Source: an uncultured Bacilli bacterium
GTDB taxonomy: Bacteria > Bacillota_I > Bacilli_A > RF39 > UBA660
Direction of reading: 5' to 3'
NCBI GenBank assembly: GCA_947627435.1
Contig: CANQWB010000001.1
Span: 7,952 to 71,951, forward strand
DNA length: 64,000 bases
The position numbers were made by a program, and so were the translations under genes. How positions within the stretch are numbered: the first letter of the stretch is position 1; the number at the start of each line of letters is the position of its first letter. The notes under the pieces were generated by a model that worked only from the letters and a program-made list of their open reading frames with translations, made no database searches and had not been told where the DNA came from. Of this stretch, positions 2,386 through 60,257 are shown in pieces.

Positions 2386-2462
2386 GGCGTGGTTGGTGAA
2401 GTGGTTAACACGGTGGATTGTGGTTCCATTATGCGTGGGTTCGATTCCCACATCGCGCCCCA
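2386..2462 (+). tRNA. tRNA-His (anticodon GTG)
   Basis: Hand-folded cloverleaf; extra G-1 typical of tRNA-His; anticodon loop TTGTGGT; T-loop GGTTCGATTCC; encoded CCA. Confidence 0.9.
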
Positions 2463-2711
2463 TTTATAAAAGAGAGCAAACTTGTATTAAGTTTGTTTTT
2501 TTATAAAATAAAATTAAAGCAAAATAAGACGAAAAAAAAGTAAAAATCAAAAAATTAATTTACTAATGTATATTATTTTATAACTTAATAAAAAAATAGA
2601 GGGATATTGTATGAAAAAACCTCTATTTTACGATATGAAGAATTTTAAAGGTATTCAAGAAGAATTAGTAGAATTATTAAATGTATAAAAAAGCTAGAAC
2701 AACTAGCTTTT

Positions 2712-3179
2712 TTATTTTGAAAATGTAACTGTTACATTGCCATTACCTAAATCAGGTAGATTCTCAATATATCCTATTTTCGTATAACTGTAAATTGTAT
2801 CAAAAGATTCATAAAATAAAACCAAACAATTATTACCATAAAGCATAATGTCGCCTTTTTCAATATGCTTAGGGTTATATGGATTTGTTGGTAAGTTATA
2901 ATCCATATAAATATATTTCTCATTACCATTTAACTCAGTCAATGTAAATTGTTGTGGTAATAAATTAAAAAAAGCTTTAGCTGTGGCATTTTGTTCTAGT
3001 GTTGCATAATAATTTTTTTCATTAATAGTAACCTGTATCATTTTATCTAGATTTTCCATATTTTCATTTACCTCACTTTGACTATAGGGATTTGTTTGCT
3101 TTGCGATTTTGTGATTGGAACAACTAGTCATTGTAAATATTATAAAAATGAACCCATAAATTAATATTTTTGTTTTCAT
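2712..3179 (-). CDS. putative lipoprotein
   Basis: Signal peptide plus lipobox-like MTSC at N-terminus; 155 aa; bidirectional terminator hairpin at 2688-2714. Confidence 0.55.
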   Translation of the reverse strand: MKTKILIYGFIFIIFTMTSCSNHKIAKQTNPYSQSEVNENMENLDKMIQVTINEKNYYATLEQNATAKAFFNLLPQQFTLTELNGNEKYIYMDYNLPTNPYNPKHIEKGDIMLYGNNCLVLFYESFDTIYSYTKIGYIENLPDLGNGNVTVTFSK

Positions 3180-3306
3180 TTTTTGTTATCCTTTCATTCT
3201 TATTGAATATGATAAAATTCTATTTATCATCTAAATATAGTATATATAAAAATATAATAAATTAGATAAATAACATTGAAAATATCATTGTATGAGAAGT
3301 AGCTTT

Positions 3307-3810
3307 TTATCGTAATGTTTTATTTCGTAATTCTAACTCTTCCTGTATTTGTTCATATTGAATCCACTCATCATTCATATCAGCTTTACCTACTTTAACA
3401 ATAGTCATATGATAGGTTTCATTTATTTTCTGATAAATATTTAATATTTTTTGTAATTGTATTTCAGTGAGTTCTTCTAAAGAATTGATATATAAAATAC
3501 CACCATTATATATTCTGTTTTCAGAACTGCATCCTTGATATGGTAAACACCCAAAATCATCTAATAATATTTGAAACAAAATACCTGTATTATTTTGTTT
3601 TGCAACACTTTTAATTTCATTTGTGTTCTTACCCGTTTTAGTAATTCCAACTTTTCCAATACCACCTGTAAGTTTCAATATTTCTTTTCCAATGACATTT
3701 TGGAAGAAACGATTATGATTTTCAGTTGTCATGGAAATAATATTACCTTCTTTTGTAATGACGAATCCGGGTGTATAAGGATCCATTGTTATTTCATCTA
3801 CATATTCCAT
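3307..3810 (-). CDS. hypothetical protein
   Basis: 167-aa ORF, no recognised motif. Confidence 0.45.
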   Translation of the reverse strand: MEYVDEITMDPYTPGFVITKEGNIISMTTENHNRFFQNVIGKEILKLTGGIGKVGITKTGKNTNEIKSVAKQNNTGILFQILLDDFGCLPYQGCSSENRIYNGGILYINSLEELTEIQLQKILNIYQKINETYHMTIVKVGKADMNDEWIQYEQIQEELELRNKTLR

Positions 3811-3921
3811 GTTATCACCTTATAACATTATAGCATAAATTCATATATTTCACTACTGACTGAATAAGTCATAGTTTTTTTGTATGAAATTTTGTATAAT
3901 CGGTACAAAGAGGTGAAGAAC

Positions 3922-4050
3922 ATGAATCAACAAAAAATGGGAAAATTTATTGCAGAATTGAGGGTAGAGCACCACTATACACAAAAAGAAATAGGAGATA
4001 AATTAGGAATTTCGGATAACTCTGTATCAAAATGGGAACGCGGACTATGA
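3922..4050 (+). pseudogene. 5-prime fragment (HTH_XRE N-terminus) of an XRE::ABC-ATPase fusion gene disrupted by element insertion
   Basis: Encodes MNQQKMGKFIAELRVEHHYTQKEIGDKLGISDNSVSKWERG then runs into foreign sequence and stops; the missing HTH C-terminus (INAPDIYYLTTLAELFDVTVKELLNGE) reappears in frame at 14122 fused to an ABC ATPase. Confidence 0.65.
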
Positions 4051-4339
4051 CCTTACAAATGACACAAAATAAAAATATACAAGATTTGCTTTATTTTAAA
4101 GGGAAAATTGAAGAAACAAACATAATTGTAAAACACGAAGAAAAAGCAAAAATTGATTATAATTTAAGTATTATGGTATCAATAAACATATAAAATAAGA
4201 AAATGTCCTCTAATTGATACAAATACTTAATAAAACTAAAATAAAGTAAAAACTTATAATAATTCGGTTATGAAATTAACAAAGGTATGTGAGAAATCAT
4301 ATCTTTTTTATTTTGTGTAAAGAAAGTGAGGAATGATAT

Positions 4340-5620
4340 ATGAATTATGGAATATTTAGAAGTGAGCCAATAATGACTATAAATGATTTAGCACAAATAG
4401 GATCTCATAACAAACGTGAGAAAAAAGCCTATAAAAGTAACCCTAATATTAAATTAGAATTAACGAAAGATAATATAGAATTAGTACCCTTAAAAGAAAA
4501 ATATGTTAAGGGCTTTAAAATGCTTGTAAAAGACTATGAAAAAGAACACAACGAAAGAATGAAAACTGAAAGAGATGATAGAAAACGAACTTTTAATGAA
4601 ATGTTAAATAAATCTAAAAGTGTTGTTGCAGATGAATTAATGTTTACAGCAACACATAAGTTTTTTGATAATATGAGTAAAGAAGAAATAATGAGGTGGG
4701 CTGATACTTGTATGGATTTTGTTTACAATGATTTAGGTTATAAAAAAGAACAAGTATTACACGCAACAATCCACATGGATGAACTAACACCTCACATTCA
4801 TTGTGTAGTTGTTCCACTTGTTAAAAAATTAGATAAAAGAACAAATACTGAAAGATTTACTATTTCAAAAAAACAATATATTAAAGACAATATTCACTTA
4901 TCAGAATTACAAGATGTTTATAATTTAAGATTAAAGGAAGCAGGATTTGAACTAGAACGAGGTATTAAAAATAGTGATAGAAAACACATTAAAATTAAAG
5001 AATTTAAGAAAACCACTAGATATTATGAAAATAAAGTAACCACTATCAATAAAAATCTTGATAATGCTATGAACGATTTTGAAGAAAAAATGAAAACAAC
5101 CAAAAGTACCATTATTGATAAAGAATATGTAAAGGTTAGAAAAGACACTTTTGATAGTATGAATAATGTTATACAAGAAACAAAAAAAGCAATAGAATTT
5201 CAACCTAAAATAGAGCAATTATTTAATGAAGTTAATACCTACACTACAAGTCATCAAACACTAGAAAAAGAAAATAAGAATCTTCAAAGAGAAGTAAAAG
5301 CACTTACTACTAGAAATCAAAACTTAACAAAAGAGAATAACAACCTTAAAACCTATTTAAAAGCCATTTTAGAGGCAATTAAACACTTTTTTAGAGAAAT
5401 ACTACAAATTGGTAATGAACCTACAAAAGAAGCCACTACAAGCGAAATAAAGGACTATTATAATAATGAGGATTTTGACTCCAATGATGTTTATGATATT
5501 TCCAAAGGAACAACCAAAGAAGATGAATTATTTGATTATGCAGAAATTCCTAGTTATTTAAAAACCAGCAAAAAATCTTATAAAGAAAAAGACAAAGATG
5601 ACTACGAAATGAGCCTATAA
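4340..5620 (+). CDS. MobV-family relaxase (plasmid recombination enzyme Mob/Pre)
   Basis: 426 aa; signature HATIHMDELTPHIHCVVVPL (HxDE...PHxH motif III of MobV/Pre relaxases); coiled-coil C-terminus. Confidence 0.85.
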   Translation: MNYGIFRSEPIMTINDLAQIGSHNKREKKAYKSNPNIKLELTKDNIELVPLKEKYVKGFKMLVKDYEKEHNERMKTERDDRKRTFNEMLNKSKSVVADELMFTATHKFFDNMSKEEIMRWADTCMDFVYNDLGYKKEQVLHATIHMDELTPHIHCVVVPLVKKLDKRTNTERFTISKKQYIKDNIHLSELQDVYNLRLKEAGFELERGIKNSDRKHIKIKEFKKTTRYYENKVTTINKNLDNAMNDFEEKMKTTKSTIIDKEYVKVRKDTFDSMNNVIQETKKAIEFQPKIEQLFNEVNTYTTSHQTLEKENKNLQREVKALTTRNQNLTKENNNLKTYLKAILEAIKHFFREILQIGNEPTKEATTSEIKDYYNNEDFDSNDVYDISKGTTKEDELFDYAEIPSYLKTSKKSYKEKDKDDYEMSL

Positions 5621-5662
5621 GAAAAGTGAGATATGTTATTGATTTAGCATATTCTCACTTTT

Positions 5663-6091
5663 TTATTTTCTTAAAAACTCATCAATAGAAAGATTATGAT
5701 TTTTACAGATTGTATATAAAGTTAATGTTGTTATCAAACTCATACCTATTTCATAATGACTATAAGTAGAACGAGATATAGAACATTCATCAGCAATTTC
5801 TTGTTGAGTTAAGCCTAATTTAGTTCTCAATGATTTTAGTTTCTTTCCAATTTTGACTTGGTTAATCACTATGTTATTTGTATGTTCTTGATTTTCTCTA
5901 GTTAGTCCTAAAACAAAATCTATTGAATAATTAAATTGATTACAGAACTTTACTAATTTCTTTAATGGTATAGAATCATAAGCATTTTCCCAACCACGAA
6001 CTGTTGAATTACTTACACCAAATATATTACCCAATTCAGTTTGTGTCATCTCTAATTCTTCTCTACAATACTTTAAATTATTTCCTATCAT
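5663..6091 (-). CDS. XRE-family transcriptional regulator with two tandem HTH_3 domains
   Basis: Two Cro/C1-type HTH units (QTELGNIFGVSNSTVRGWEN.. and QQEIADECSISRSTYSHYE..). Confidence 0.8.
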   Translation of the reverse strand: MIGNNLKYCREELEMTQTELGNIFGVSNSTVRGWENAYDSIPLKKLVKFCNQFNYSIDFVLGLTRENQEHTNNIVINQVKIGKKLKSLRTKLGLTQQEIADECSISRSTYSHYEIGMSLITTLTLYTICKNHNLSIDEFLRK

Positions 6092-6192
6092 ATATGTTTC
6101 ACCATAATAATTTTCCCATCAAATTTTAATTTGATACGAAAATAGCGGGTAATGTATCAAAAATGTGATATAATCTTTTATAGAAAGGGGAA

Positions 6193-6495
6193 ATGAATAT
6201 GTATTTAAGTTTCAAAGATATTTGTTTATGTGTTTTAAAGGCTCTTATATTAACCTTAATCTTTGTAGCATTAATAGGCTTAATAATGTTTGATTACAAA
6301 ATTGGAATTAATTATTGTGATTTAATGAATATACCGAGAGATTTAGCACTTTCTGTTATGAGTTTAGGTATGGCAATAAATATCACTATTATTATGTTTG
6401 TAATAGAAATAATTGTATTGTATTTTATTATTAAAAAACTTAAACGAATTCAGTTATTTAACAATATTTGTGAATTTTTAAGTATTGATTATTGA
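6193..6495 (+). CDS. small integral membrane protein (3 predicted TM)
   Basis: 100 aa, three hydrophobic helices. Confidence 0.4.
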   Translation: MNMYLSFKDICLCVLKALILTLIFVALIGLIMFDYKIGINYCDLMNIPRDLALSVMSLGMAINITIIMFVIEIIVLYFIIKKLKRIQLFNNICEFLSIDY

Positions 6496-6593
6496 TAAAA
6501 GATTATTAAATCTAGTTAAAATCATTAAGAAAAAGTGATATAATTATATTACAAAGTGATGCAGAAATAGTAATTTGTTGAATAGGAGGAATT

Positions 6594-7814
6594 ATGAAAA
6601 AACAAATTAAAATAATTTTAGTAGTTATAATAAGTCTTATAGTTTTATATGGTGTATTATTCTTTGTTGATATGAACAGAGTTAAGCACTTAAAAAGACC
6701 TATATTTTGTGTAGAAAATGGATATATGGGTAGTATGACAAGATATGATGGTTTAGGATATAAAATAGGTCTTGATATTAACGCAACAACAGGAGAAATA
6801 ACTTATGGACAAATGACTATATTAGGACAAACTATTGTCAAATCATATAGTGAAAATGAAGATAATAAAGCAACAGATGATTATGATAAGCAATTAGTAC
6901 AATGTTTAGAAAGCCAATTAGGAGGCTATCTTGTAACCGAAAAAGATGATTTAATAGAAATACCTTTGAGTGAAATAAAAAATAGTGATAAAGAAAAAAT
7001 CTCCTATTATAAAGGAGTATATGCTAGTAATCATCCAAATAATATTTATGTAATGGTTTTTCCAAAAAATGGAACTTATGAATCTAGTGTAATGAAAGAT
7101 TTTGATAAATATTTTTATGAAAAATTTTCTGTATATCAAAAGTATGAAAGTCCTACTACTCCAACAATTTACATTCATACTAATGACAACGATGTAGATT
7201 TCAAAGAAATCACTAACAAGTGTGTAACTAGGAAAAATACTGAAAATGGTAAATCTATTCCTACAGAAACATTAAATAAAATTAATGACACTACTAAAAT
7301 AATTATAAAATCTAGTCAAGAAGAGTTAGGAACAATAACCGATAAAGAAAAACTGACAGAAATATTAAGTGCTATTTCAAGCAGTAAAAGATATGGCGAA
7401 GTATGTACTTCTGATGGACATGGATTTGAATTTAATATGTATGACAAAAATAATAAACTTATTGATACCATTTATATTTGGGGTGATGGTGCAAGATTAA
7501 TGCCTAAAAGTCTTAATGGTTGTCCTTATGTAACCACAGATAATACTGATTTAAGAAAAATAATTGAAGATACAACTGATTATATATTTTCTGGAATTTT
7601 AGATTTTAGAGATGATATTAATCAAACAGAGCAAACATTAATATACAAAGATGGTAAAAATAGTTATTATTTAAATAGTAAAGATCCTAATGAAATATTG
7701 ATTAAATTTATGTTAAATAATAAAGTAATGACTCTTAAATATGCTTTAGAAAATAAATATATTTCAGCAGAAAAAGTTGCTAGTGAGTATCCAGATATAT
7801 TGATAAGAAAATAA
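6594..7814 (+). CDS. membrane-anchored protein, N-terminal domain paralogous to 8414-8950 (GLGYK motif)
   Basis: N-terminal TM, then KRPIFCVENGYMGSMTRYDGLGYKIGL resembling EPKYCIKIVSNDGSKVTYWGLGYKVIRYV of the downstream paralog. Confidence 0.5.
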   Translation: MKKQIKIILVVIISLIVLYGVLFFVDMNRVKHLKRPIFCVENGYMGSMTRYDGLGYKIGLDINATTGEITYGQMTILGQTIVKSYSENEDNKATDDYDKQLVQCLESQLGGYLVTEKDDLIEIPLSEIKNSDKEKISYYKGVYASNHPNNIYVMVFPKNGTYESSVMKDFDKYFYEKFSVYQKYESPTTPTIYIHTNDNDVDFKEITNKCVTRKNTENGKSIPTETLNKINDTTKIIIKSSQEELGTITDKEKLTEILSAISSSKRYGEVCTSDGHGFEFNMYDKNNKLIDTIYIWGDGARLMPKSLNGCPYVTTDNTDLRKIIEDTTDYIFSGILDFRDDINQTEQTLIYKDGKNSYYLNSKDPNEILIKFMLNNKVMTLKYALENKYISAEKVASEYPDILIRK

Positions 7815-7824
7815 TAAGTTAAAT

Positions 7825-7837
7825 AAATTACAATTTG
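7825..7837. repeat. palindromic motif AAATT-AC-AATTT copy 1, upstream of 7856 gene
   Basis: Perfect inverted repeat immediately followed by GTAAGGGAG RBS. Confidence 0.4.
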
Positions 7838-7855
7838 TAAGGGAGATGTTGTTTT

Positions 7856-8383
7856 ATGGATAATAAGAAAAAAATAGTAATAGGAGTTGTGATTTTAATT
7901 TTGTTAGTAACTATTGGAGGAGTAATTTACTATACTATTTATAAAGATGTTACTGATAGAGAAAACTTTGATGGAAAAAAAGAAAATTTGGGTAATACTC
8001 CAGTAGATACAACAAGTAACAATTTTGATTTTTATATTGAAAAACCAGAAATTCATAATGATATTAGATTTAATGATTATTTCACTTTTAGTGATAGAAA
8101 GATTTATTTAGCAGGTAATATTGAACAATTTTATGTTATAGATGGAAAAACCATGATTTTAAAGGAATATATTTCAAATGCTAATAGAACAATGAATGAT
8201 AGCATTAAATCGATAACTGATAAATTAGAATTAAAAGATACCTTAAAAGATGGAGGAACAAAGATTTACAAATCAAAAGACAAAGATATTACAATGATAG
8301 TATGTAACACTATTAAAAACGATAAAAATATATTTATTGGGGATTATTCTATGGAATATACAGAAGGAGATTGTAAAAACTAA
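7856..8383 (+). CDS. membrane-anchored small protein (175 aa), cassette member
   Basis: N-terminal TM (KKKIVIGVVILILLV..), start context identical to the next gene. Confidence 0.5.
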   Translation: MDNKKKIVIGVVILILLVTIGGVIYYTIYKDVTDRENFDGKKENLGNTPVDTTSNNFDFYIEKPEIHNDIRFNDYFTFSDRKIYLAGNIEQFYVIDGKTMILKEYISNANRTMNDSIKSITDKLELKDTLKDGGTKIYKSKDKDITMIVCNTIKNDKNIFIGDYSMEYTEGDCKN

Positions 8384-8397
8384 CAAATTACAATTTG
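8384..8397. repeat. palindromic motif CAAATT-AC-AATTTG copy 2, upstream of 8414 gene
   Basis: Perfect 6+2+6 inverted repeat followed by GAAAGGGAA RBS. Confidence 0.4.
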
Positions 8398-8413
8398 AAA
8401 GGGAAATGCGTTT

Positions 8414-8950
8414 ATGAAAAAGAAAATATATATTGGTGCAGGAATAATTTTAGTTATACTTATAGTTGCAGGAATCATAACAAACTATGCAGATAGTGGT
8501 AGAGTAACAACAGGACATGAGCCAAAGTATTGTATTAAAATAGTTAGTAATGATGGTAGTAAAGTGACTTATTGGGGATTAGGTTATAAAGTTATTAGAT
8601 ATGTTGGAGTATCTCCAAATGAGCCTTATGAAAATAATATTGGTGTAAAAATGGGAAGTTGGTTTATGAATTATGATTTACCAAATGAAAAAGTCATCAC
8701 AATAGAATATGAAGGTAAAACAATAGAAATAAATAATTATGATGACATCAATAAAATTTACAATATATTAGTTAATTCAAAATACAACTCTGAAATATGT
8801 GATGGGATAAATACTCACAAAATAATAATAGACAATGAAGTATATTATTTAAAAGAGAGTTGTCAAGAAATTCAAAAAGGAGATAAACAATCAAAAATAT
8901 CAAAAGAAGATTTAGACACAATATTAAAAATAATAGATAGTAATAAGTAA
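8414..8950 (+). CDS. membrane-anchored small protein (178 aa), cassette member
   Basis: N-terminal TM (KKKIYIGAGIILVILIV..), GLGYK motif shared with 6594 gene. Confidence 0.5.
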   Translation: MKKKIYIGAGIILVILIVAGIITNYADSGRVTTGHEPKYCIKIVSNDGSKVTYWGLGYKVIRYVGVSPNEPYENNIGVKMGSWFMNYDLPNEKVITIEYEGKTIEINNYDDINKIYNILVNSKYNSEICDGINTHKIIIDNEVYYLKESCQEIQKGDKQSKISKEDLDTILKIIDSNK

Positions 8951-8952
8951 TA

Positions 8953-8966
8953 CAAATTACAATTTA
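8953..8966. repeat. palindromic motif CAAATT-AC-AATTTA copy 3 (imperfect), after last cassette gene
   Basis: Third copy of the motif, not followed by an ORF. Confidence 0.35.
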
Positions 8967-8971
8967 TAGAA

Positions 8972-9385
8972 CAGATTAAAGCGAGAACCGAGCCAAAAGA
9001 AATTACATAACTAATGGCTCGGTTAAAACCTAGTTCTTGGCGACTAGGTAACACACTACGATATTGGCAAAGCCAATAACGATGTGTGCAAAGGGTGATC
9101 CCTTTTGAAACCCCTTTTAAGCAACATATTACAAAGTTTCACAATGTAATATTGTTGCCTTTTTATTTCACTTACGTTTCATAAAAAGAAAAAAAGGACT
9201 ACAACTTTCATCAGCATAGCTGACAAAACGTGATAGCCTTTTTTTAATGAAAATAACCTTAATGCTAAAGTCTTACGACTAAAGCAAAAAGGTTATTTTT
9301 TTCTTTTGTTATCACAAAAGTATTGATGAATAAAATTACTTTTCCCACTTTCATTGTCTTACGACAACAAAACGTGTTCGTAATT
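8972..9385. other. GC-enriched, highly structured non-coding region (candidate oriT/sso or ncRNA) within the element
   Basis: No ORF; multiple stem-loops (AACCGAGCC..GGCTCGGTT 9 bp; CCTAGT..ACTAGG; CAACATATTACA..TGTAATATTGTTG; AATAACCTT..AAGGTTATT+T-run); GTCTTACGAC direct repeat x2; local GC well above flanks. Confidence 0.4.
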
Positions 9386-9832
9386 TTATTTCTTCTTATT
9401 ATATGTTTTTTCTAATAATCTTGCAGTATCTCTCTTTGCTACATAAATTGCTAAATAAGTAAACACTTCATATACTACCATTACAATAAAGAATCCGATT
9501 ATAATATATTGATTATGTGTGATGCTTTGTTTAACCCATTCAGCACCCTGAATAATTAAATATACTACACCAAAGAATACAGTTGATAATGTAGTAGAGT
9601 CATCAAAAGATCGTTGTATCACTCTTGATTCTTCTTTATCAACATTTAATCCTCTTACACTCCATCTTGCAATTACCATTAACACCAACACCATTAAAAA
9701 TGGAGTAATAACCCAATATAGATTATAACCATAATCATTTTTGAGTATTAAAACGAATACTAAACTTACTAACATAAAAATATTTAATAATACGATTCCA
9801 ATATTTCTTATTAGATTTTTATTTCTTTGCAT
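9386..9832 (-). CDS. integral membrane protein (4 TM), co-transcribed with XRE repressor
   Basis: 148 aa, four hydrophobic segments; overlaps stop of upstream XRE gene by 14 nt. Confidence 0.5.
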   Translation of the reverse strand: MQRNKNLIRNIGIVLLNIFMLVSLVFVLILKNDYGYNLYWVITPFLMVLVLMVIARWSVRGLNVDKEESRVIQRSFDDSTTLSTVFFGVVYLIIQGAEWVKQSITHNQYIIIGFFIVMVVYEVFTYLAIYVAKRDTARLLEKTYNKKK

Positions 9833-10337
9833 TTTTGTTTCTCTCCTTTACTTTTAAACTTAGAATTAAATTAACAATTTCATTAGACGTATTGATTTGA
9901 TATTTTGTATCTTCTATTGTATGTAGTAGTAATTCTTTTTCACTTTCTAATATGTTTTGCTTTTTTAAATTTTCTTCACACGACTTAACTAATTGTTCTG
10001 AATTAGTAATACTACCTAACACATTGATTTCAGCCTCATTTAATTCATCTAAATTCATTTTTTCATAGTAATCCTTAATAAATGGATTTAATGAACTAAC
10101 TTCCATACCCAAACCTATCATGTACATCATTTCATTATAATTTACGTTTATGTGTCTACTAATCTTTCTTAAAGTTTTAGGGTTAGGTATTTCTCTTTCT
10201 CCTGATTCAATTTTAGATAATTCAGCATTACTAATATTTGCAATTTTAGCAAGTTGTCTTTGAGAAAGTTTTGCTTTTTCTCGTGCTTCAGCGATTATCT
10301 CGCCAATCTTTTTTTCTTGCATTGTAATACACCTCAC
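9819..10337 (-). CDS. XRE/cI-like HTH repressor
   Basis: HTH_3 (LSQRQLAKIANISNAELSKIESGEREIPNPKTLRKISRHINV); divergent from sigma-A promoter TTGACA-17-TATATT at 10413-10441. Confidence 0.75.
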   Translation of the reverse strand: MRCITMQEKKIGEIIAEAREKAKLSQRQLAKIANISNAELSKIESGEREIPNPKTLRKISRHINVNYNEMMYMIGLGMEVSSLNPFIKDYYEKMNLDELNEAEINVLGSITNSEQLVKSCEENLKKQNILESEKELLLHTIEDTKYQINTSNEIVNLILSLKVKERNKNAKK

Positions 10338-10474
10338 ACATACATAATAGCATATATGTTACCTAAAATCAACAAAATACATAAAAATGTTTCAAAAAGT
10401 GTTGACAACTTCGTAATTATTATGTATATTGTATGTGTTACCGAAAATTAACATTGAAAGGAGGGATTAAATGA

Positions 10475-10735
10475 ATGAGGATTAAACACCTAGAAGTACC
10501 ACAAGAGATTTGGGAAGATAAAAGAATCCCAAAAGAAACGAAGTATATTTACTCTTATATCTATTCTAAAGGATTTGATAGAATTATCACAGACATAAAT
10601 ATAGGAGAGATACAACAAACCATTAAAATTAAAAATAAGGGTTTGAAAAGAAGTCTTGAAATATTAAAACAATTAAAGTATCTAAAATATTTTCAAGAAT
10701 ATGCAACAGGAATGTACACAATAACACTTAACTAA
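10475..10735 (+). CDS. HTH_36-like small DNA-binding protein
   Basis: Pattern KETKYIYSYIYSKGFDRIITDINIGEIQQTIKIKNKGLKRSLEILKQLKYL resembles the winged-helix HTH_36 fold of phage/plasmid replication organisers. Confidence 0.45.
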   Translation: MRIKHLEVPQEIWEDKRIPKETKYIYSYIYSKGFDRIITDINIGEIQQTIKIKNKGLKRSLEILKQLKYLKYFQEYATGMYTITLN

Positions 10736-11005
10736 AGTGCCGAAAAGCGTTAGTTATAAGAGGTACAGTAAGATGAAAGGCTTATGTTAGTACCTATTCT
10801 AGTAATAGAATGAATCTAGTTTGAAATAAGACATACTCAAAGAACTATTAAAATAAAAAGAAATGTATGTGTTATTTCAAATAATATAATCCGATGAAAC
10901 AGGATTTAAAATAAAGTTTCAGGGATAACTTTGCTTATTTTTAGTAGTTAGACTTGTAGATAATACAGGTTTTTTTGTTGTTTAAATCAAATAAAGGAAA
11001 GGAGA

Positions 11006-11257
11006 ATGTCTATGAGAGAATTAACAAGAGTTGATATTGTAAAAAACAGAGTTGATACGATCCCACAATACTATATTTTAGATTACTTAAAGAAAAACTT
11101 AAATATAGATGAATTTAAAATATATCTAGTTAATCGTAATAGTATCAAAGTTATTGATTCAACAGGAGATTATTTATATTTTAATTGTGATGACAATACA
11201 AAAGAAGTAACTTATCATGAAAAACCAAAAGAAAAAGAATATGAAATAGGATTATAA
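11006..11257 (+). CDS. hypothetical protein
   Basis: 83-aa ORF with RBS AAAGGAAAGGAG. Confidence 0.4.
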   Translation: MSMRELTRVDIVKNRVDTIPQYYILDYLKKNLNIDEFKIYLVNRNSIKVIDSTGDYLYFNCDDNTKEVTYHEKPKEKEYEIGL

Positions 11258-11261
11258 GACT

Positions 11262-11519
11262 ATGGGTTGCATTATACTAGATGATTCCATAGTTAAAAGT
11301 AATAAGATAAATTCCACAGAAAAACTTGTATATGGTGTTATTCTATCACTTGCGAATAATAAAGGTTATTGTTATGCAAGTAATGATTATATAAGTGATA
11401 AAGTAAACCTATCTAAAAGAACGATTACTAATTCTATCAGCGAACTAAAAAGAGCAAATTATATAAGAGTTGAATACGTAAACTTTGAAAGACACATCTA
11501 TCCCATACAAACCGAGTAG
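11262..11519 (+). CDS. HTH_36 domain protein
   Basis: STEKLVYGVILSLANNKGYCYASNDYISDKVNLSKRTITNSISELKRANYI matches the HTH_36 pattern. Confidence 0.55.
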   Translation: MGCIILDDSIVKSNKINSTEKLVYGVILSLANNKGYCYASNDYISDKVNLSKRTITNSISELKRANYIRVEYVNFERHIYPIQTE

Positions 11520-11690
11520 CAATATTCTTCTATACCCTATGGAAGAATACTGCTATACCCCATAGCAAAATACTTCTACCAAAGAATATAAGAATAATAA
11601 ATAAGTATAATAAATAAATATTTTAATTATATTTAAATTTATTTTAAGTAATTTAAATAACTAAAGAAATTAAATGAAAGGATTTGATAT

Positions 11691-12131
11691 ATGGATTATG
11701 AAAATGTAAATTATAATGAGGTTATCATATCAGGAATAATCAATGTTGTTACAGATACTAATGATAAGTATATTAAGTTTGGATTAACAACTAACAAATA
11801 TACTTTAAATGATGATAAAAAGGTTTATGTAAGTTTAAATATATCAAGAGAATTATATAACACTTATCAAGATTATTTTGTTAAAGGAAATAAAGTCTTT
11901 ATCAAAGGTTATCTAAATTCTTATGTTGATAAAACTAAACACATACAGAGTTTTATTACAACAACTGATATTTCAAATAACCCAAATGACATTAAAACAG
12001 GAAGAAAAGCACCACATATTAGGTATGATCCTGATGGTGTTATGGTATGGAATGGCAAACGTTGTGAGGCGATTCCACCAACTGAAAAAGAACTACAAGA
12101 AATGCAAGAATTATTAGGCGATTATAAATAG
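11691..12131 (+). CDS. single-stranded DNA-binding protein (divergent SSB, OB fold)
   Basis: NEVIISGIINVV.. and YVSLNISRELYNTYQDYFVKGNKVFIKGYLNSY parallel the SSB OB-fold core; acidic C-terminal tail region. Confidence 0.5.
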   Translation: MDYENVNYNEVIISGIINVVTDTNDKYIKFGLTTNKYTLNDDKKVYVSLNISRELYNTYQDYFVKGNKVFIKGYLNSYVDKTKHIQSFITTTDISNNPNDIKTGRKAPHIRYDPDGVMVWNGKRCEAIPPTEKELQEMQELLGDYK

Positions 12132-12204
12132 TATTGAACGGAGGAAATGAGATTATATATGAAAAAGAATTATTATTAAAACTAAAAAGAAAGGGGGAAG
12201 TTTA

Positions 12205-12357
12205 TTGAACGATACTAAAAAATTAACACAAATTGAAATTGAAAATATATTAGATGAAACAATTAACTTATCAATAATAAGTAAATTACTGAATTTAAAA
12301 CTTATTACAGAAAAACAATATTACGTACTGAAAGAAAAAATAAAGAATTTTTATTAA
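12205..12357 (+). CDS. small ORF (TTG start, 50 codons) with SHOCT-like C-terminus; possible recombination directionality factor
   Basis: RBS AAGGGGGAAG 7 nt upstream of TTG; C-terminal LITEKQYYVLKEKIKNF; directly upstream of recombinase. Confidence 0.25.
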   Translation: MNDTKKLTQIEIENILDETINLSIISKLLNLKLITEKQYYVLKEKIKNFY

Positions 12358-12413
12358 AAGGCTACAGGAATGTACAAAAATAAGATATAATAAATACAGA
12401 GGACATTTATTTA

Positions 12414-14171
12414 ATGTCTAACATTAAAAGAAAGAGAGGTAAAATGGCGATTGTTGAGGTTATTAAAAGTAATAATCTCATAACCGAAGAAATCAATACT
12501 GAAAATAAACTAAAGAAAGTATGTGCATATTGTAGAGTTTCAACAGATAGTGAGGAACAATTAACAAGTTATTCATCACAAATAAAACATTATTCAGCAC
12601 AGATAAAAGCGAATCCAAATTGGGAGTTTGTAGGAATATATGCTGATGAGGGTATAAGTGGAACACAAGTTAAAAAACGTACTGAATTTCAAAGAATGAT
12701 AAACGATGCTTTAAATGGTAAGATAGATATTATTATAGCAAAATCAATATCAAGATTTGCAAGAAATACTATTGATACCTTAAAGTATGTAAGAGATTTA
12801 AGAGAACGTAAAGTTGATGTGTATTTTGAAAAGGAAAATATTCACACATTAGAACTTGAAAGTGAAATGTTTTTAACACTCTTTAGTGCATTTGCTCAAG
12901 CTGAAAGTGAATCAACTTCTCAAAACGTTAAAATGGGAATAAAAGCAATGATGAAACGAGGAGAATTTGTTGGTAAAGCAGAATGCTATGGCTATAAATG
13001 GAATAAGGAAACGAAGACACTAGAAGTTTACGAAGAACAAGCAAGTGTTGTTAGAATGATATTTAATTGGTATGCTGATGGAGTTGGAACAAGAACGATT
13101 GCTAATAGACTTAATGAAAAAGGTTATAAAACTTATACAGGTAAAAATTTTACTCAACAAGGTGTAAGAGAAATGATTTCTAATGAAAAATATGTTGGAG
13201 ATTTATTGTGTCAAAAGTATTATACGATAAGTCCTCTAACACATAAGAAAACAAGAAATTATGGCGAACGTGAAAAATATTATGTCAAAGATCATCATAC
13301 ACCTATCATTACAAGAAAAGTTTGGGACAAAGTACAAGAAATACTAACAAAAAGAAGTAAGAAGATAATCCCTGATGGCAAAAGTCATGCAAGTAAATTC
13401 ACAAGTCAATATGCTTTTAGTTCTAAAATAGAATGTGGACTATGTGGAACAAATTATGCTCGTAGAGTTAGTGGCAAGTATAAAGATGGAAGTCAAAAAG
13501 TCTATTGGGCTTGTTATCATAAAGTAGTTAAGAAAAGTAATTGTGAACACTCTATAACCTTTAGAGAAGATTTTTTAAAAGATTTATTCATACAAATTTA
13601 TAATTCTATTGTGGAGAAAAAGCATAAGACAAAAGATAAGTTATTAAAGGCAATACGTGAAACTCTAGAAAGTGATGATAGCAAGACTAAAATTGATAAA
13701 CTTTATAAAGAACTAGAATCACAACAAAAAAGATTATCTAATTTAATTGATATGAAACTAGATGACTATGAGAATAAAAATGCTTATACTGAAAAGGAAA
13801 AAGAAATAAATGGTAAAATCAAAAGCCTAAATGATGAAATCTATCAATTAGAGTTAGAAAACAATAATAACAAAGAAATTTCTAAAAGACTAAAAGAGAT
13901 AGAAGAAGTTGTGTTTGAAAGTGAGAAATCTTTAAAAGAATTTGATGAGGCAACATTTGAAAATTTAGTTGAGAAAATCATAATAGGAGAAAAAGATGAG
14001 AATGGAAATGAGAATCCTAATGTGATTAGATTTATTTTAAAAATTGGTGGAGATTATAAAGCCATAATCTCCCCAAATAATAATAGTATTGATGATGTGT
14101 CATTTGAACAAGGAAACAGGTATCAATGCACCCGATATTTATTACTTAACTACATTAGCAGAATTATTTGA
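12414..14171 (+). CDS. large serine recombinase (resolvase/invertase N-terminal domain + recombinase domain + zinc ribbon + coiled coil)
   Basis: 585 aa; catalytic region YCRVSTDSEEQ...IIAKSISRFARN; Cys-rich CGLCGTNYARR...CYHK zinc ribbon; coiled-coil; reads across the right junction of the element. Confidence 0.9.
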   Translation: MSNIKRKRGKMAIVEVIKSNNLITEEINTENKLKKVCAYCRVSTDSEEQLTSYSSQIKHYSAQIKANPNWEFVGIYADEGISGTQVKKRTEFQRMINDALNGKIDIIIAKSISRFARNTIDTLKYVRDLRERKVDVYFEKENIHTLELESEMFLTLFSAFAQAESESTSQNVKMGIKAMMKRGEFVGKAECYGYKWNKETKTLEVYEEQASVVRMIFNWYADGVGTRTIANRLNEKGYKTYTGKNFTQQGVREMISNEKYVGDLLCQKYYTISPLTHKKTRNYGEREKYYVKDHHTPIITRKVWDKVQEILTKRSKKIIPDGKSHASKFTSQYAFSSKIECGLCGTNYARRVSGKYKDGSQKVYWACYHKVVKKSNCEHSITFREDFLKDLFIQIYNSIVEKKHKTKDKLLKAIRETLESDDSKTKIDKLYKELESQQKRLSNLIDMKLDDYENKNAYTEKEKEINGKIKSLNDEIYQLELENNNNKEISKRLKEIEEVVFESEKSLKEFDEATFENLVEKIIIGEKDENGNENPNVIRFILKIGGDYKAIISPNNNSIDDVSFEQGNRYQCTRYLLLNYISRII

Positions 14172-19230: not shown

Positions 19231-19321
19231 ATTAATGATTAAAAGATAAAAATCGTGGTGTAAAGGGACAACATAATCTTGCATTTAAAATAAAATTATG
19301 ATAATCTAAATGTAGAAATAA

Positions 19322-19400
19322 AATCATAGAATAGTTTCAAATAGTAAGCATTTCTAATATTTACTATTTGTAAACGGGGGGGGGGTACCCCTCTTTTTTA
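19322..19400 (+). promoter_or_regulatory. conserved leader copy 1: 10-bp hairpin (CAAATAGTAA..TTACTATTTG) + G10 tract + CCCC + T-run
   Basis: About 90% identical to 43375-43450; poly-G 19376-19385 (10 G) versus 9 G in the paralogous leader. Confidence 0.45.
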
Positions 19401-19497
19401 TTGTCTTGAAAAGAAAAATAAAATATAGTACACTAGTGGTGTATATAAGAATAAAAGAATTAGAAAAGTATCAGAATAGGAGTAAGGAGAGATGTAT

Positions 19498-20949
19498 ATG
19501 AAGAAAAAAGGATTTACATTGATAGAATTATTAGCGGTAATCGTAATACTTGCAATTATCGCACTAATCGCAACGCCAATGATTATGGGTGTAATAGAAG
19601 ATGCCAGAAAAGGAGCAGCAATTCAATCAGTAAATGGATTACTAGAAGCAGGAGAACAATATCAAATAGAAGGAATGCTAGAGGGGAATTCTTCAAATGT
19701 AATTGATTTAACAAGTGATACATTAAGTATAAAAGGAAGTAAACCAGAAAGTGGCTTATTAGTAATAGATAATAGTGGAGATATGAGTATTATAGCAAAA
19801 TACGGAAAATACTGTATCGAAAAGAAATATGAAGATGAAGAGCCAACAATAGTAGAAAAAAATCCATGTGTGATAGAAGAAGATGAAGTTGATGTCAAAA
19901 TCTATGGAGTAAAAAGAAAAATTAATAGCTCATCAACAGAGTGGGAAAGAATCGATAATAGTGTTGGATTAGAAGCAAAAGCACAAATAGGAACACAAGA
20001 AGTAACAAATGATTTTGACAATATTTATCCATGGAGTGAAATATATACTTACAGTTGGAATAAAGCAACAGGAAAAGAGACAAGATGGAATGAAGAAGGA
20101 TTTTCATATACTGATGATTATGTATTTACAAAAATACCAGAATTTTATTATAGAAGATATCAAGAGAATGGATATGAATATGTTTTAATATCTAAAAATA
20201 AAATAGAAGGATATACAAAAAGCAATGAATTTTCAATAGGAAGATATACGATGTCAGGAACTGAAACAGGGGTTTATAGTAAAAGTGGAGCACAACCGTT
20301 AAGAAATAAAACAATAGGCGAATTTAGAGACTATGCAAGAGCCTTAGGAAATGAATTCAGTCAATTAGATTATCATTACTTTATTATTCAATTATTATAT
20401 TTAGTAGAATATGCAAATTATGATTCTCAAGAAAAATTAGGAAGAGGAAATGTGGCCAATAGTATAGTAATATCTAGTGGTGGTTGCGATACATTAGGCA
20501 TGAAATCAGGGACACTTAATAATGATGGACAACATTCCATGATATATAGAGGAATGGAAGATATTTATGGAAATATATTTCAATTTGTAGATGGAATTAA
20601 TATCAAAGATTATCAAGCATATGTATGTTATAATCCAAATCAATATGAATCAGATACATTTGAAGGCTATTATCAACAATTAGGTTATGTAAATACAATT
20701 GCGGGAGGATATATCAAAAAACTAGGATATGATGTCAATCATTCATTAATCAGTTTTCCATTAGAGGTAGGTGGAAAAGAAAATACATATATTCCAGATA
20801 GTTATTATCGATCTTCTGGAAATAGAATAGTAATGGTTGGTGGGCTTGGAAATCGTGATTCTCAGGCAGGCTTGTGGTGTTGGGACTGTAATAATCCTTC
20901 GTCCATTGTTGGTGACTATATCAGTGCTCGCCTTATTAAAACTAGTTAG
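19498..20949 (+). CDS. modular type IV prepilin-like protein (class III signal peptide + about 450-aa C-terminal module), paralog A
   Basis: N-terminus MKKKGFTLIELLAVIVILAIIALIATPMIMGV (G/FTLIE prepilin peptidase site, Glu+5); C-terminal half highly similar to 43476-44963. Confidence 0.7.
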   Translation: MKKKGFTLIELLAVIVILAIIALIATPMIMGVIEDARKGAAIQSVNGLLEAGEQYQIEGMLEGNSSNVIDLTSDTLSIKGSKPESGLLVIDNSGDMSIIAKYGKYCIEKKYEDEEPTIVEKNPCVIEEDEVDVKIYGVKRKINSSSTEWERIDNSVGLEAKAQIGTQEVTNDFDNIYPWSEIYTYSWNKATGKETRWNEEGFSYTDDYVFTKIPEFYYRRYQENGYEYVLISKNKIEGYTKSNEFSIGRYTMSGTETGVYSKSGAQPLRNKTIGEFRDYARALGNEFSQLDYHYFIIQLLYLVEYANYDSQEKLGRGNVANSIVISSGGCDTLGMKSGTLNNDGQHSMIYRGMEDIYGNIFQFVDGINIKDYQAYVCYNPNQYESDTFEGYYQQLGYVNTIAGGYIKKLGYDVNHSLISFPLEVGGKENTYIPDSYYRSSGNRIVMVGGLGNRDSQAGLWCWDCNNPSSIVGDYISARLIKTS

Positions 20950-40083: not shown

Positions 40084-40112
40084 TTGCAAATTTTGTCAAA
40101 GCATGGTAGAAT
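40084..40112 (+). promoter_or_regulatory. sigma-A-type promoter TTGCAA-17-TAGAAT for the LytTR regulator/kinase operon
   Basis: Near-consensus -35/-10 with 17-bp spacer; implies the true start codon is ATG at 40163. Confidence 0.5.
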
Positions 40113-40162
40113 GTAAAAGCAGTAAGTTAACCTTTTGCAAACAAATTAGAAAGCGTGATAGT

Positions 40163-40885
40163 ATGATTCGTTTTGCAGTATGTGATGATGAAAAAGAATT
40201 TCGCACCAGAGTTGTAAAAGCAATTGATAAAATATTTATGAAAAATACAATTGAATATGAAATAGAGGAATTTATTGGTTATGATAACAAATTTGAAGAA
40301 TTTATGGAACAATCATATACTTCAAAAATTTATATATTAGATATAGAACTTAAAAATAGTATATCTGGAATTGATATTGCGAGAAAAATTCGAAAAAGTG
40401 ATTGGGATAGTATTATAATTATGGTGACATCGCATTTTGATTTGGGATATGAAGCATTAAAAGCCCAGATTATGCTTTTAGATTTTATTTCTAAGTATGA
40501 TGAATGTGAAAAAAGACTTACGGCTGTTTTAAAAAAAGCAATTAGTAATATAGATCATAAAAAAATTCTCATATTTGAGACAAATGGTATATCTCACCGT
40601 ATTTATTTAGATGATATACTATATGTTACAAAAGATACTGTTGAACGAAAATGTATTATTCGAACAACTTATACCGAATTTGCAGTCAATAAGACCATGA
40701 ATCAAATGATTGAAGAATTAGATGATAGATTTTATTTAACACATCGAAGTTGTTTGGTAAATACAGAAAAAATTAGAACTATTGATTGGAAAAATAACAT
40801 CATTTATTTTGAAAAAGATGAATCGATTGATCTTCTAGCTAGAGATAAAAAGAAGGGATTGAAAGAATTTGTCAGCGTGGATTAG
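40163..40885 (+). CDS. LytTR-family response regulator (AgrA/ComE-like)
   Basis: MIRFAVCDDEKEF receiver domain, C-terminal LytTR domain; followed by cognate kinase. Confidence 0.8.
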   Translation: MIRFAVCDDEKEFRTRVVKAIDKIFMKNTIEYEIEEFIGYDNKFEEFMEQSYTSKIYILDIELKNSISGIDIARKIRKSDWDSIIIMVTSHFDLGYEALKAQIMLLDFISKYDECEKRLTAVLKKAISNIDHKKILIFETNGISHRIYLDDILYVTKDTVERKCIIRTTYTEFAVNKTMNQMIEELDDRFYLTHRSCLVNTEKIRTIDWKNNIIYFEKDESIDLLARDKKKGLKEFVSVD

Positions 40886-43321: not shown

Positions 43322-43374
43322 GAAAAAGGGCTTGAAAAATAGAGCCCTTTTATGATAATATGAATATGTCAAAT

Positions 43375-43450
43375 AAATCATAAGATAGTTTCAAATAGTA
43401 AGCATTTTTGATATTTACTATTTGTAAACGGGGGGGGGTAACCCTCTTTT
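43375..43450 (+). promoter_or_regulatory. conserved leader copy 2: same hairpin + G9 tract + CCC + T-run
   Basis: Hairpin arms 43392-43401/43415-43424; poly-G 43430-43438 (9 G). Confidence 0.45.
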
Positions 43451-43475
43451 TTTGTGATTGGAAGGAGTGAAAAGA

Positions 43476-44963
43476 ATGAAGAAGAAAGGATTTACATTGA
43501 TAGAATTATTGGCTGTAATCGTAATATTAGCAATTATTGCACTAATCGCAACGCCAATGATTATGGGAGTAATAGAAAATGCAAGAAAGAAAGCAGCAAT
43601 TCAATCAGTGAATGGCTTATTAGAAGCAGGAGAACAATATCAAGTAGAATCTATGATGGATGGAGCAAGAGAAACTGAAATCGATTTAACTGGTGATACT
43701 TTAGATATAAAAGGAAGTAAACCAGATAGTGGAGAACTCATCTATGATAGTTTAGGAAATATGAGTATTATAGCAAAATATGGAAAATACTGTATCGAAA
43801 AGAAATTTTTAGATGAAGAACCAACCATAGTCACAAGAAAAGAATGTGAGATGAAAGCATCAGAAAAAGCTAATCAAACAACAAAAATATATGGAGTAAA
43901 AAGAAATATAGAAAGTGAATCAACAGAATGGGAAAGAATAGATGATGGAATAGATTTAACAGCAAATGCCCAAATAGGACCAGATGCAACAAATGTAAAA
44001 AATGATTTTGATAGTGTATATCCATGGAGTGATATAGAGACATATACATATGATGTAGAGAAAAAAGAAGTAACCAGTTGGTATAATGAAGAAAAAGATA
44101 AATTCAAATTTGATGGAAGTAAAGGAGAAGTACTAACATATATACCAACATTCTATTATAAGAGATATCAAGAAGATGGATATGAATATATTTTAATAAG
44201 TAATAAAAATTTAGAGGGATATACAAGAAGTGATGCATTTTCAATAGGAAGATATACAATGTCAGGTGATAGCAATGCTGTACATAGTAAAAGTGGGAAA
44301 CAACCATTAACGAATAAAAAAATAAATGAATTTAGAGACTATGCAAGAGCATTAGGGGATGAATTTAGTCAATTAGATTATCATTACTTTATTATTCAAT
44401 TATTATATTTAGTGGAATATGCAGATTATGATTCACAAGTCAAGTTAGGACAAGGATATACAGCTACAAGCAATACTGCAGTTATTAAAAGTGGAGGTTG
44501 TGATGAATTAGGAATGAAATCAGGAACACTCAATAATGATGAACAACATTCTATGATATACAGAGGAATGGAAGATATCTATGGAAATGTATGGCAATTT
44601 GTAGATGGAATCAATATTAAAGATCATCAGGCATATGTATGTTATAATCCTAATCAATATGAATCAGACAAGTATGATGGATGTTATCAAAAACTAGGTT
44701 ATGTGAATGCAAATGTTAATGGATATATAAAGAAATTAGGTTATGATTCTAAAAATCCATTAGTGAGTTTTCCAACAGAAATTGGTGGAAGTGCTAGTAC
44801 ACATATTTCAGATAATTATTGGCATAATCCTGACAATAGAATAGCTATTGTCGGCGGTGCATGGTTCGTTACCAATCTTGGTGGGTTGTGGTATTGGAAC
44901 TTGTATCATGATTCGGGTGATACGTACGGCTACTTCGGAGCTCGACTTCTTAAAACTAATTAA
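43476..44963 (+). CDS. modular type IV prepilin-like protein, paralog B
   Basis: MKKKGFTLIELLAVIVILAIIALIATPMIMGV identical to paralog A; RBS GGAAGGAG; mosaic divergence in the first half, conserved C-terminal half. Confidence 0.7.
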   Translation: MKKKGFTLIELLAVIVILAIIALIATPMIMGVIENARKKAAIQSVNGLLEAGEQYQVESMMDGARETEIDLTGDTLDIKGSKPDSGELIYDSLGNMSIIAKYGKYCIEKKFLDEEPTIVTRKECEMKASEKANQTTKIYGVKRNIESESTEWERIDDGIDLTANAQIGPDATNVKNDFDSVYPWSDIETYTYDVEKKEVTSWYNEEKDKFKFDGSKGEVLTYIPTFYYKRYQEDGYEYILISNKNLEGYTRSDAFSIGRYTMSGDSNAVHSKSGKQPLTNKKINEFRDYARALGDEFSQLDYHYFIIQLLYLVEYADYDSQVKLGQGYTATSNTAVIKSGGCDELGMKSGTLNNDEQHSMIYRGMEDIYGNVWQFVDGINIKDHQAYVCYNPNQYESDKYDGCYQKLGYVNANVNGYIKKLGYDSKNPLVSFPTEIGGSASTHISDNYWHNPDNRIAIVGGAWFVTNLGGLWYWNLYHDSGDTYGYFGARLLKTN

Positions 44964-60165: not shown

Positions 60166-60176
60166 TTTATTTTTTT

Positions 60177-60252: not shown

Positions 60253-60257
60253 GTTAT

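Follow-up and report, generated by a model that had tools for sequence, protein, structure and literature searches.

Why should a genome of low G+C content keep long, uninterrupted runs of G immediately upstream of two related surface-protein genes, and does the length of these runs control the genes that follow? The question is raised by a 64,000-nucleotide (nt) stretch of DNA from an uncultured Bacilli bacterium (assembly GCA_947627435.1, contig CANQWB010000001.1, positions 7,952 to 71,951, forward strand), which was analyzed over its whole length and is referred to here as the window. Two genes for proteins with a type IV pilin-like N-terminus lie within it. A first-pass annotation had noted a conserved leader with a hairpin and a poly-G run upstream of both, and had proposed that slipped-strand mispairing switches each gene independently. 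The runs, G10 at 19376-19385 and G9 at 43430-43438, are the sole G or C runs of at least 6 across the 64 kb window (28.1% G+C), in which about 0.005 runs of at least 9 would be expected from base composition. Our analysis indicates that each run is very probably the 5′ arm of a terminator-like hairpin in a conserved, transcribed leader, and is maintained as a homopolymer. The leader belongs to a sizeable, undescribed family tied to an expanded pilin-like gene family in uncultured gut Bacilli. On/off switching of each pilin copy is not borne out; a graded effect of tract length is the most that folding predicts, and the chances that length changes modulate expression at all, as a contingency device or a rheostat, appear just short of even.

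The sequence features reported by the first-pass annotation held up and could be extended. The block of about 80 nt, put at about 90% identity between the two pilin-like loci, aligns (19322-19400 with 43376-43453) with 72 of 79 columns identical (91%). The full conserved block is longer, covering 19296-19400 (about 105 nt) with 94/107 columns identical (88%) and including a promoter-like TGATAAT. The 10-bp inverted repeat CAAATAGTAA / TTACTATTTG is perfect in both copies (19338-19347 / 19361-19370 in copy 1; 43392-43401 / 43415-43424 in copy 2), and a 38-nt pattern across it occurs exactly twice in the window as against 0 expected (100 shuffles). The repeat is the inner part of a hairpin, P1, that extends to GUUU...AAAC and comprises 14 bp with one bulge. 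The positions of the G runs, and the order of UA(A), C run and T run that follows them, were also as reported, and these parts make up a second hairpin, P2, directly behind P1. The two leaders and their genes are laid out as follows; SD denotes the Shine-Dalgarno sequence.

19279..19307, + strand: copy 1, predicted sigma-70-type promoter (-35 TTGCAT 19279-19284, 17-nt spacer, TGn 19299-19301, -10 TAATCT 19302-19307)
19313..19333, + strand: copy 1, conserved A/U-rich 5′ segment (..AAAUAAAAUCAUAGAAUA) before P1, from the family alignment
19334..19375, + strand: copy 1, hairpin P1 (5′ arm GUUUCAAAUAGUAA 19334-19347, 13-nt loop, 3′ arm UUACUAUUUGUAAAC 19361-19375)
19376..19385, + strand: copy 1, G tract (G10), the 5′ arm of P2, read from the sequence and of the same length in an independent ENA assembly (L001)
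19376..19399, + strand: copy 1, intrinsic-terminator-like hairpin P2 (G run, UA, CCCCUC, U6), -12.7 kcal/mol alone
19401..19491, + strand: copy 1, "long-type" insert between terminator and gene (promoter-like TTGTCT-17-TATAGT 19401-19429, small hairpin, SD AAGGAG at about 19484-19489)
19498..20949, + strand: copy 1, pilin-like gene (PF07963; phrog_5302, E = 2e-55)
43332..43361, + strand: copy 2, predicted promoter (-35 TTGAAA 43332-43337, TGn 43353-43355, -10 TAATAT 43356-43361), from a promoter scan and alignment with copy 1
43388..43429, + strand: copy 2, hairpin P1 (5′ arm 43388-43401, 3′ arm 43415-43429)
43430..43438, + strand: copy 2, G tract (G9), read from the sequence
43430..43453, + strand: copy 2, terminator-like hairpin P2 (G9, UAA, CCCUC, U7), -9.9 kcal/mol alone
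43460..43467, + strand: copy 2, SD GGAAGGAG, starting 7 nt 3′ of the U tract
43476..44963, + strand: copy 2, pilin-like gene (ATG at 43476; pilin-like N-terminus, 66% identical to copy 1)

The copy 1 promoter was read from the sequence, aligns with that of copy 2 and is conserved between them, and the arrangement TTGAAA-17-TGnTAnnnT lies 5′ of most members of the family described below. The copy 2 promoter shares sequence with the terminator (43325-43352) of hpf, the gene upstream. Transcription from the copy 1 promoter is predicted to start near 19313, so that the leader RNA would open with the A/U-rich segment, in which AATCATAGAATAGTTT / AATAGTAATATAGTTTG hardly varies among family members. 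Minimum-free-energy folds of both leaders contain P1 and P2 (z = -3.6 for copy 1 and -2.9 for copy 2). The GGGG/CCCC terminator-like stem suggested by the first-pass annotation was right in using the G run as its 5′ arm and too narrow in its choice of partner: the run pairs with the whole pyrimidine tract, CCCCUCUUUUUU, through G-C and G-U pairs. P2 is laid out as an intrinsic terminator would be, with a G+C-containing stem-loop and, directly after it, a U tract, both on the sense strand and both placed between the predicted promoter and the start codon, and a terminator scan returned 8 (copy 1) and 6 (copy 2) terminator-like registers as against 0.2 and 0.1 in shuffles. The gap from U tract to ATG in copy 2 is 22 nt, and the promoter scan found no promoter-like site between P2 and the ATG; the copy 2 gene would therefore be transcribed only by readthrough of P2. 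The long-type insert of copy 1, about 80 nt extra, is missing from copy 2 and is found in L002, L004, and the long-type members of the family.

An effect of tract length on promoter spacing, which had also been considered, does not apply to these two copies. In both, the tract is inside the predicted transcribed leader, about 69 nt 3′ of the predicted -10 and thus outside the promoter spacer; nor does it have a conserved pair of hexamers around it, which rules out promoter spacing as the mechanism in the window. Candidate promoters across the G tract on either strand, for example TTGTAA/ATGCAA...TAAATA, proved weak and not conserved, and do not occur in the window copies. We could also rule out a poly-G read-end sequencing artefact: the tracts are internal, have conserved flanks, and recur in independent NCBI, ENA, and JGI assemblies.

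Further leader copies, which the first-pass annotation had suggested looking for, are absent from the remainder of the window and abundant in related metagenome-assembled genomes (MAGs) and metagenomes. We drew on pilin-related loci from species-representative genomes (80 in all), on a scan of metagenomes with CTATWTGYAAACGGGGGG, and on about 600 kb of DNA from the clade. Many of the 80 loci have G7-G11 immediately 5′ of the gene, several of them within the same leader. The metagenome scan yielded 52 loci, about 38 of them true members, the remainder having G6 only in unrelated high-GC sequence; almost every metagenome copy lies 5′ of an MKKKGFTLIELLAV... gene. About 35 copies came from a single metagenome, OIZF01 (loci within L085-L135), and five OIZF01 loci correspond at ≥99.5% identity to loci of MAG MGYG-HGUT-02248 (L043, L044, L051, L053, and L078). 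One species thus has some 35 leader copies or more, each with its own pilin-like gene behind it. A covariance model built from 39 leaders recovered 56 instances (52 distinct) in the MAG and metagenome loci searched, with the same order of parts. Applied to the window with filters off, it returned the two known copies at 73 and 65 bits and no others, the next match (22.6 bits, 51874-51932) being an ordinary AU-rich terminator. Rfam searches of the window and three loci at gathering thresholds gave nothing except tRNAs, and permissive E-value searches with both leaders gave best sub-threshold matches of 14-18 bits (E > 0.4). That the family is a candidate cis-regulatory RNA with no Rfam counterpart is well supported, even if tract length is irrelevant.

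Several details of these loci are recorded here. Leader pairs are sometimes only 1.3-5.6 kb apart (L094, L099, L100), and many contigs end exactly at the leader, as at an assembly-breaking repeat. Behind a few leaders (L084, L093, L106, L109, and L112) are non-pilin open reading frames (ORFs) encoding small hypothetical proteins or a putative membrane protein, MQGVSSKSRLVALLLCFFLGGLGVH. At L013 (1318-1394), which shares one MAG with L027 (G10), the leader has no upstream promoter and begins directly behind the preceding gene's stop codon.

The products of the two window genes are fusions of an N-terminus of about 120 residues, type IV pilin-like with a prepilin methylation motif (PF07963), and a C-terminal domain of about 350 residues that matches phrog_5302, a family of phage tail proteins (E = 2e-55 and 2e-58). 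From these matches, the proteins may represent a pilus-displayed receptor-binding head of phage origin. Homologues among the matches listed belong to uncultured Bacilli and "Tenericutes" gut MAGs. The C-terminal domain has 6473 homologue matches in total, thousands of them without the pilin N-terminus, and many homologues at 72% coverage lack PF07963. Pilus machinery was not found in the window, where both genes are isolated amid housekeeping genes.

Whether the conserved block is selected as RNA or as DNA can be addressed from the pattern of substitutions. In a model-based alignment (A4), 90% of pair cells hold standard pairs, as against 54-65% when partners are slid, and P1 cells pair across the family in 89% of cases. 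A plain MAFFT alignment (A3) contains 88 G-U or U-G cells in P1 and 13 A-C or C-A cells; an excess of this kind is the pattern expected of an RNA read from the + (gene) strand, unlike that of a DNA palindrome. The inner stems of P1 differ compensatorily between clades, with CAAAUAGUAA/UUACUAUUUG in copy 1 (W1) and GCGAAAAGCA/UGCUUUUUGC in L136. The base of P1, GUUUG/CAAAC, is conserved in sequence and the apex is variable. At L137 (440-580) the apex carries an insertion of about 60 nt with its own G+C-rich hairpin (GAGAGGGUAACCCCCUCU) and therefore tolerates insertions.

Within this structure the G run stands out for its purity and strand. Pure runs are present in 49 of 52 family members, with 29 G10, 16 G9, 2 G8, 1 G7, and 1 G11. 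At stem positions opposite U, G is retained in 46-49 of the 52 sequences, despite the greater stability of an A-U pair and the strong AT bias of the genome. All 55 G or C runs of at least 7 in the approximately 600 kb of clade loci are sense-strand G, never C; 49 lie in the leader, and four of the six others are directly 5′ of pilin-like genes. Among the runs outside the leader, that at L047 is cut by the contig end with a pilin-like gene following, and at L069 the stretch examined stops before the gene. Three family members show what else the site can hold: L013 has an ordinary GAGGG-GUAA-CCCUC-U5 terminator there, GAGGGGG replacing the homopolymer, and single interruptions of the run occur in L091 (GGTGGGGGG) and L124 (GGGGGGAGGG). 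From these variants it follows that the hairpin is ancestral or essential and that purity of the run was added to it and has been maintained. The hpf terminator and other ordinary terminators of the window have no homopolymer. Both window tracts exceed the length at which homopolymers become prone to slip (about 7-8 or more), and the genes that they precede, with a prepilin N-terminus and a tail-protein-like domain, are of the surface type.

The first-pass annotation read the G10/G9 difference as a length polymorphism of the slippage type. In support of this part of the proposal, lengths range from 7 to 11 among paralogs and differ in some cases between two assemblies of a single locus. Six loci are represented in two assemblies each, with 590-nt upstream flanks 100% identical, and two of the six differ by G9 versus G10: L053/L096, with zero substitutions over about 1.47 kb, and L078/L111, with zero substitutions and one further indel over about 1.47 kb. 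Copy 1 has G10 in both assemblies compared. As read from these assemblies, the same-locus differences are suggestive of hypermutability. By inspection, G length showed no consistent compensation with loop length or pyrimidine-tract length.

Two of these comparisons have features of their own. L078 (1-1467) and L111 (6774-8240) are identical over 1.47 kb to about 20 nt beyond the G tract, save for G9/G10 and the one indel, and are then unrelated, a short-type leader and gene in one and a long type in the other; the junction may reflect either leader-internal recombination or an assembly chimera at the repeat. L043 and L100 (+6435) are 100% identical over 590 nt upstream and differ by 9 substitutions (98.5% identity) in the first approximately 580 nt downstream of the leader, most of which is coding sequence of the pilin-like gene, a pattern that suggests faster change or gene conversion in the pilin-like gene.

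Elsewhere in the clade, poly-G occurs in other arrangements 5′ of pilin-like genes. L059 (1432-1461; TTGAAA-N11-G7-TATAAT) and L062 (1438-1468; TTGACA-N8-G11-CATAAT) carry the tract in the promoter spacer, and further contexts occur at L017, L069, L047, L007, and L041. The L059 and L062 arrangements make the general idea of poly-G control of pilin-like genes, as put forward in the first-pass annotation, plausible for the clade.

How strongly might length matter in the leader itself? Folding with n = 3-13 predicts that each added G contributes one more G-U pair (-0.5 kcal/mol) and leaves one fewer unpaired U in the tail. Total energies for G9/G10 are -24.2/-24.7 kcal/mol in copy 1 and -22.3/-22.8 kcal/mol in copy 2, and a switch of stem stability between G9 and G10 is not supported at this point, the predicted shift being just 0.5 kcal/mol. 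In copy 2 the predicted accessibility of the SD is constant for n of at least 6. Paralogs of the L094 type, which are abundant, behave differently in the model: their pyrimidine tract, CUUCUUUUUU, can alternatively pair with AAAAAGGAAG, the SD region, and the predicted free-SD fraction is 0.37 for G7, 0.48 for G8, 0.62 for G9, 0.72 for G10, and 0.78 for G11. The effect of length is thus predicted to be graded at most.

A frameshifted leader peptide was considered as another route by which length could act and was rejected, as upstream ORFs (uORFs) through the tract exist in some subtypes only, lack an SD, and do not occur in copy 1. No ORF with a start codon crosses the copy 1 tract, and copy 2 has a TTG ORF alone, again lacking an SD. 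ATG-CAA-ACG-GGG uORFs are confined to ATGCAAAC subtypes. In subtypes whose P1 3′ arm reads ..TATGCAAAC (L099 (-5225), L128 (-372), and L044), this uORF runs through the G tract in a frame that depends on G length, and certain lengths place it in the frame of the pilin-like ORF, as in MQTGGGYFTYLFFFVAIKRKEDYMKEKGFTLIE... Without an SD, and buried inside P1, it is unlikely to be used.

We propose, with about an even chance of being right, that the block is a premature-terminator leader whose slippage-prone G arm gives graded variation paralog by paralog. An extended -10 promoter would start the leader RNA, the long hairpin P1 would fold, and P2, directly behind it and with the anatomy of an intrinsic terminator, would act as a premature terminator. 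Through G-C and G-U pairs, the G run would zip up the 3′ arm of P2, a pyrimidine tract (CC(C)UCUUUUUU). Expression of the pilin-like gene would then depend on readthrough of P2, the only route open to copy 2 and other members of the short type; in copy 1 and members of the long type, the second promoter-like site may be used besides readthrough. In some paralogs the pyrimidine tract may sequester the SD instead, and there the G run would serve also as an anti-anti-SD. Each G gained or lost by slippage would alter the P2 stem by one G-U pair and take up or free one U of the tail. The outcome would be heritable, reversible, per-paralog, and probably graded variation in output across a large surface-protein gene family. 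A bolder version, which we offer tentatively and think rather unlikely, is that the leader represents an undescribed type of contingency switch, a heritable rheostat inside an intrinsic terminator that dials dozens of pilin-tail-fibre fusions gene by gene. Its G arm would set, by single G-U pairs, the depth to which the hairpin reaches into the U tract and, in some paralogs, whether the anti-SD tract is captured. The shared leader might, in addition, provide a homology patch for cassette exchange between paralogs.

Several results weigh against a length-dependent terminator. Equilibrium folding of the window copies gives almost no difference between G9 and G10, and the transcription start, the termination point, and readthrough are themselves predictions. 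A search of the leader for another partner of the G run turned up none, its only C-rich partner being the 3′ arm of P2, and P1 and P2 coexist in every fold, so that the mutually exclusive structures of an antiterminator are not seen. The lengths are tightly clustered at 9-10 and not broadly spread, which a structural length requirement could equally explain, and the same-locus G9/G10 pairs come from short-read metagenome assemblies that possibly share source data and may contain homopolymer miscalls. Covariation support for the RNA structure is moderate. In percentage paired, in doubly changed cells (23), and in covariation score, A4 exceeds all of 500 shuffles; because A4 was fitted to the model and many of its rows are recent paralogs, these statistics are inflated, and on A3 the covariation did not exceed shuffles and was not significant.

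The main alternative is that the same anatomy belongs to a structural attenuator that does not phase-vary. The leader would then be a premature terminator, regulated or constitutive, or an element that unmasks the SD, and the difference between 9 and 10 G residues would reflect neutral drift or assembly error. The G run would be kept in order to pair with C and U alike and so zip up the whole pyrimidine/U tract, perhaps with a trans-acting protein bound to the P1 base and AAAC-G(n). The tight length distribution and the near absence of a predicted G9-G10 energy difference are what this explanation would lead one to expect. The sequence conservation of GUUUG/CAAAC at the P1 base and of the 5′ AAUAGUAAUAUAG segment resembles that of a binding site, and the pairing of poly-G RNA with a pyrimidine-rich terminator arm is a workable device in Bacillus subtilis pyrG (PMC7039003). 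Pairing alone, however, leaves G opposite U unexplained, since A-U is stronger and mutation pressure is toward AT; the ordinary GAGGG/CCCUC stem of L013 shows that the site can be filled without a homopolymer, and hpf and other ordinary window terminators do without one. In addition, poly-G sits in the promoter spacers of pilin-like genes in related MAGs, a position in which length alone can matter, and no candidate binding protein was identified. On balance we regard an attenuator without phase variation as possible but doubtful.

If the block were instead a stand-alone small RNA gene of about 87 nt ending at the U tract, its product, encoded by many near-identical copies, might act in trans, for example through its CCUCUU anti-SD-like tract, and the pilin-like gene would have its own promoter. 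The block's predicted promoter and terminator would suit such a gene, as would the second promoter-like site between P2 and the gene in copy 1 and long-type members and the few members 5′ of non-pilin genes (L084, L093, L106, L112). We consider it improbable, in that the block is always gene-oriented and immediately upstream, and the distance from U tract to SD, within 8-25 nt in copy 2 and most members of the short type, leaves no room for a promoter and requires co-transcription. Least probable, to the point that we give it very little credence, is an element acting as DNA, either an operator for a dimeric regulator with spacing set by the G tract or a recombination hot spot that shuffles cassettes (compare the pilE G-quadruplex, G4). 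The perfect 10-bp palindrome of the window copies would fit an operator, and the abrupt divergence of L078 and L111 past the tract and the contrast between upstream and gene in L043/L100 would fit recombination. The repeat is nevertheless kept through G-U wobbles, which in DNA are mismatches; by inspection, neither strand has a conserved -35/-10 pair around the tract; and the tract is always sense-strand G. A pilE-type G4 has four or more G runs, and here one run of 9-10 G, with no others nearby, cannot form an intramolecular quadruplex. Contigs often end at the repeat, and the L078/L111 junction is possibly an assembly chimera.

Other features of the window are listed here for context. A probable integrated mobile element (2387-14171) adjoins a tRNA gene (2387-2459) and contains a Mob_Pre relaxase (4340-5620) and a large serine recombinase (12414-14171). 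An Agr/Com-like two-component pair at 40103-42158, consisting of a LytTR response regulator (40103-40885) and a GHKL histidine kinase (40869-42158), lies 1.2 kb 5′ of copy 2 on the same strand. Twelve tRNA genes form an array at 60089-62397.

The graded length effect that we propose has partial counterparts in known systems. Variable surface-protein families of Mycoplasma carry slippage-prone repeats, poly-A in vlp and GAA in vlhA. As here, a large family of surface-protein paralogs in low-GC, Bacilli-related hosts has such a repeat in each conserved 5′ region; in Mycoplasma, however, the repeats lie in or 5′ of the promoter, the genes encode lipoproteins, and there is no terminator hairpin. 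Homopolymers in promoter spacers control Bordetella fim (poly-C) and Neisseria porA and opc. In systems of this type, tracts of 7-12 G or C lie 5′ of surface-protein families and vary in length within populations, a layout matched by L059 and L062; the window tracts, about 69 nt 3′ of the -10, differ from them. Promoter poly-G is also found at Treponema pallidum tpr and tp0126 (PMC7864442).

The closest functional parallel is uspA1 of Moraxella catarrhalis, in which a G(n) tract 5′ of the ORF gives low mRNA with G9 and high mRNA with G10 and, in another strain, low with G8-10 and high with G11-12 (PMC7302503). The tract ranges from 8 to 12 and acts by a mechanism other than -35/-10 spacing (PMC7302503, citing Lafontaine 2001). 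Poly-G 5′ of a surface-adhesin ORF, resolution to a single G, and graded mRNA are common to uspA1 and our proposal. In contrast, uspA1 is a single-copy gene of a Gram-negative pathogen for which no conserved two-hairpin leader or terminator arm is described, whereas here dozens of paralogs are each preceded by the tract, which makes up the 5′ arm of a terminator-like hairpin. The pil1 leader of Streptococcus gallolyticus combines GCAGA repeats, a leader peptide, and a premature terminator, and produces heterogeneous pilus expression by attenuation (PMC3894217). It resembles our leaders in coupling a slippage-prone repeat to a premature intrinsic terminator at a Gram-positive pilus locus, and differs in that the pil1 repeats change the frame of a translated leader peptide, whereas here the repeat is the terminator stem and no conserved uORF or SD covers the tract. 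At B. subtilis pyrG, CTP-sensitive reiterative transcription adds G residues at the start site, and these block terminator formation (PMC7039003). There too, G-C and G-U pairs join poly-G RNA to the pyrimidine-rich strand of a terminator in a 5′ leader, but the run in our leaders is encoded in DNA and forms the terminator stem, whereas in pyrG it acts as an antiterminator. Strictly, the leader is a member of none of these systems.

Homopolymer phase variation is textbook biology in Gram-negative pathogens, spirochaetes, and mycoplasmas. To our knowledge it is hardly documented in uncultured commensal gut Bacillota, nor with the repeat serving as the terminator stem. If tract length does tune readthrough, the leader would represent a simple new design for stochastic control in which the mutable element is the RNA structure itself. 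The signature TGYAAAC-G9-10...CCUCUUUUUU would then flag, in MAGs, a large variable family of pilin-like proteins with phage-tail-like heads, and tract-length distributions could be read cheaply from existing metagenomic reads. Should the rheostat prove true, a phasome of surface adhesins would exist in a commensal clade where none is known.

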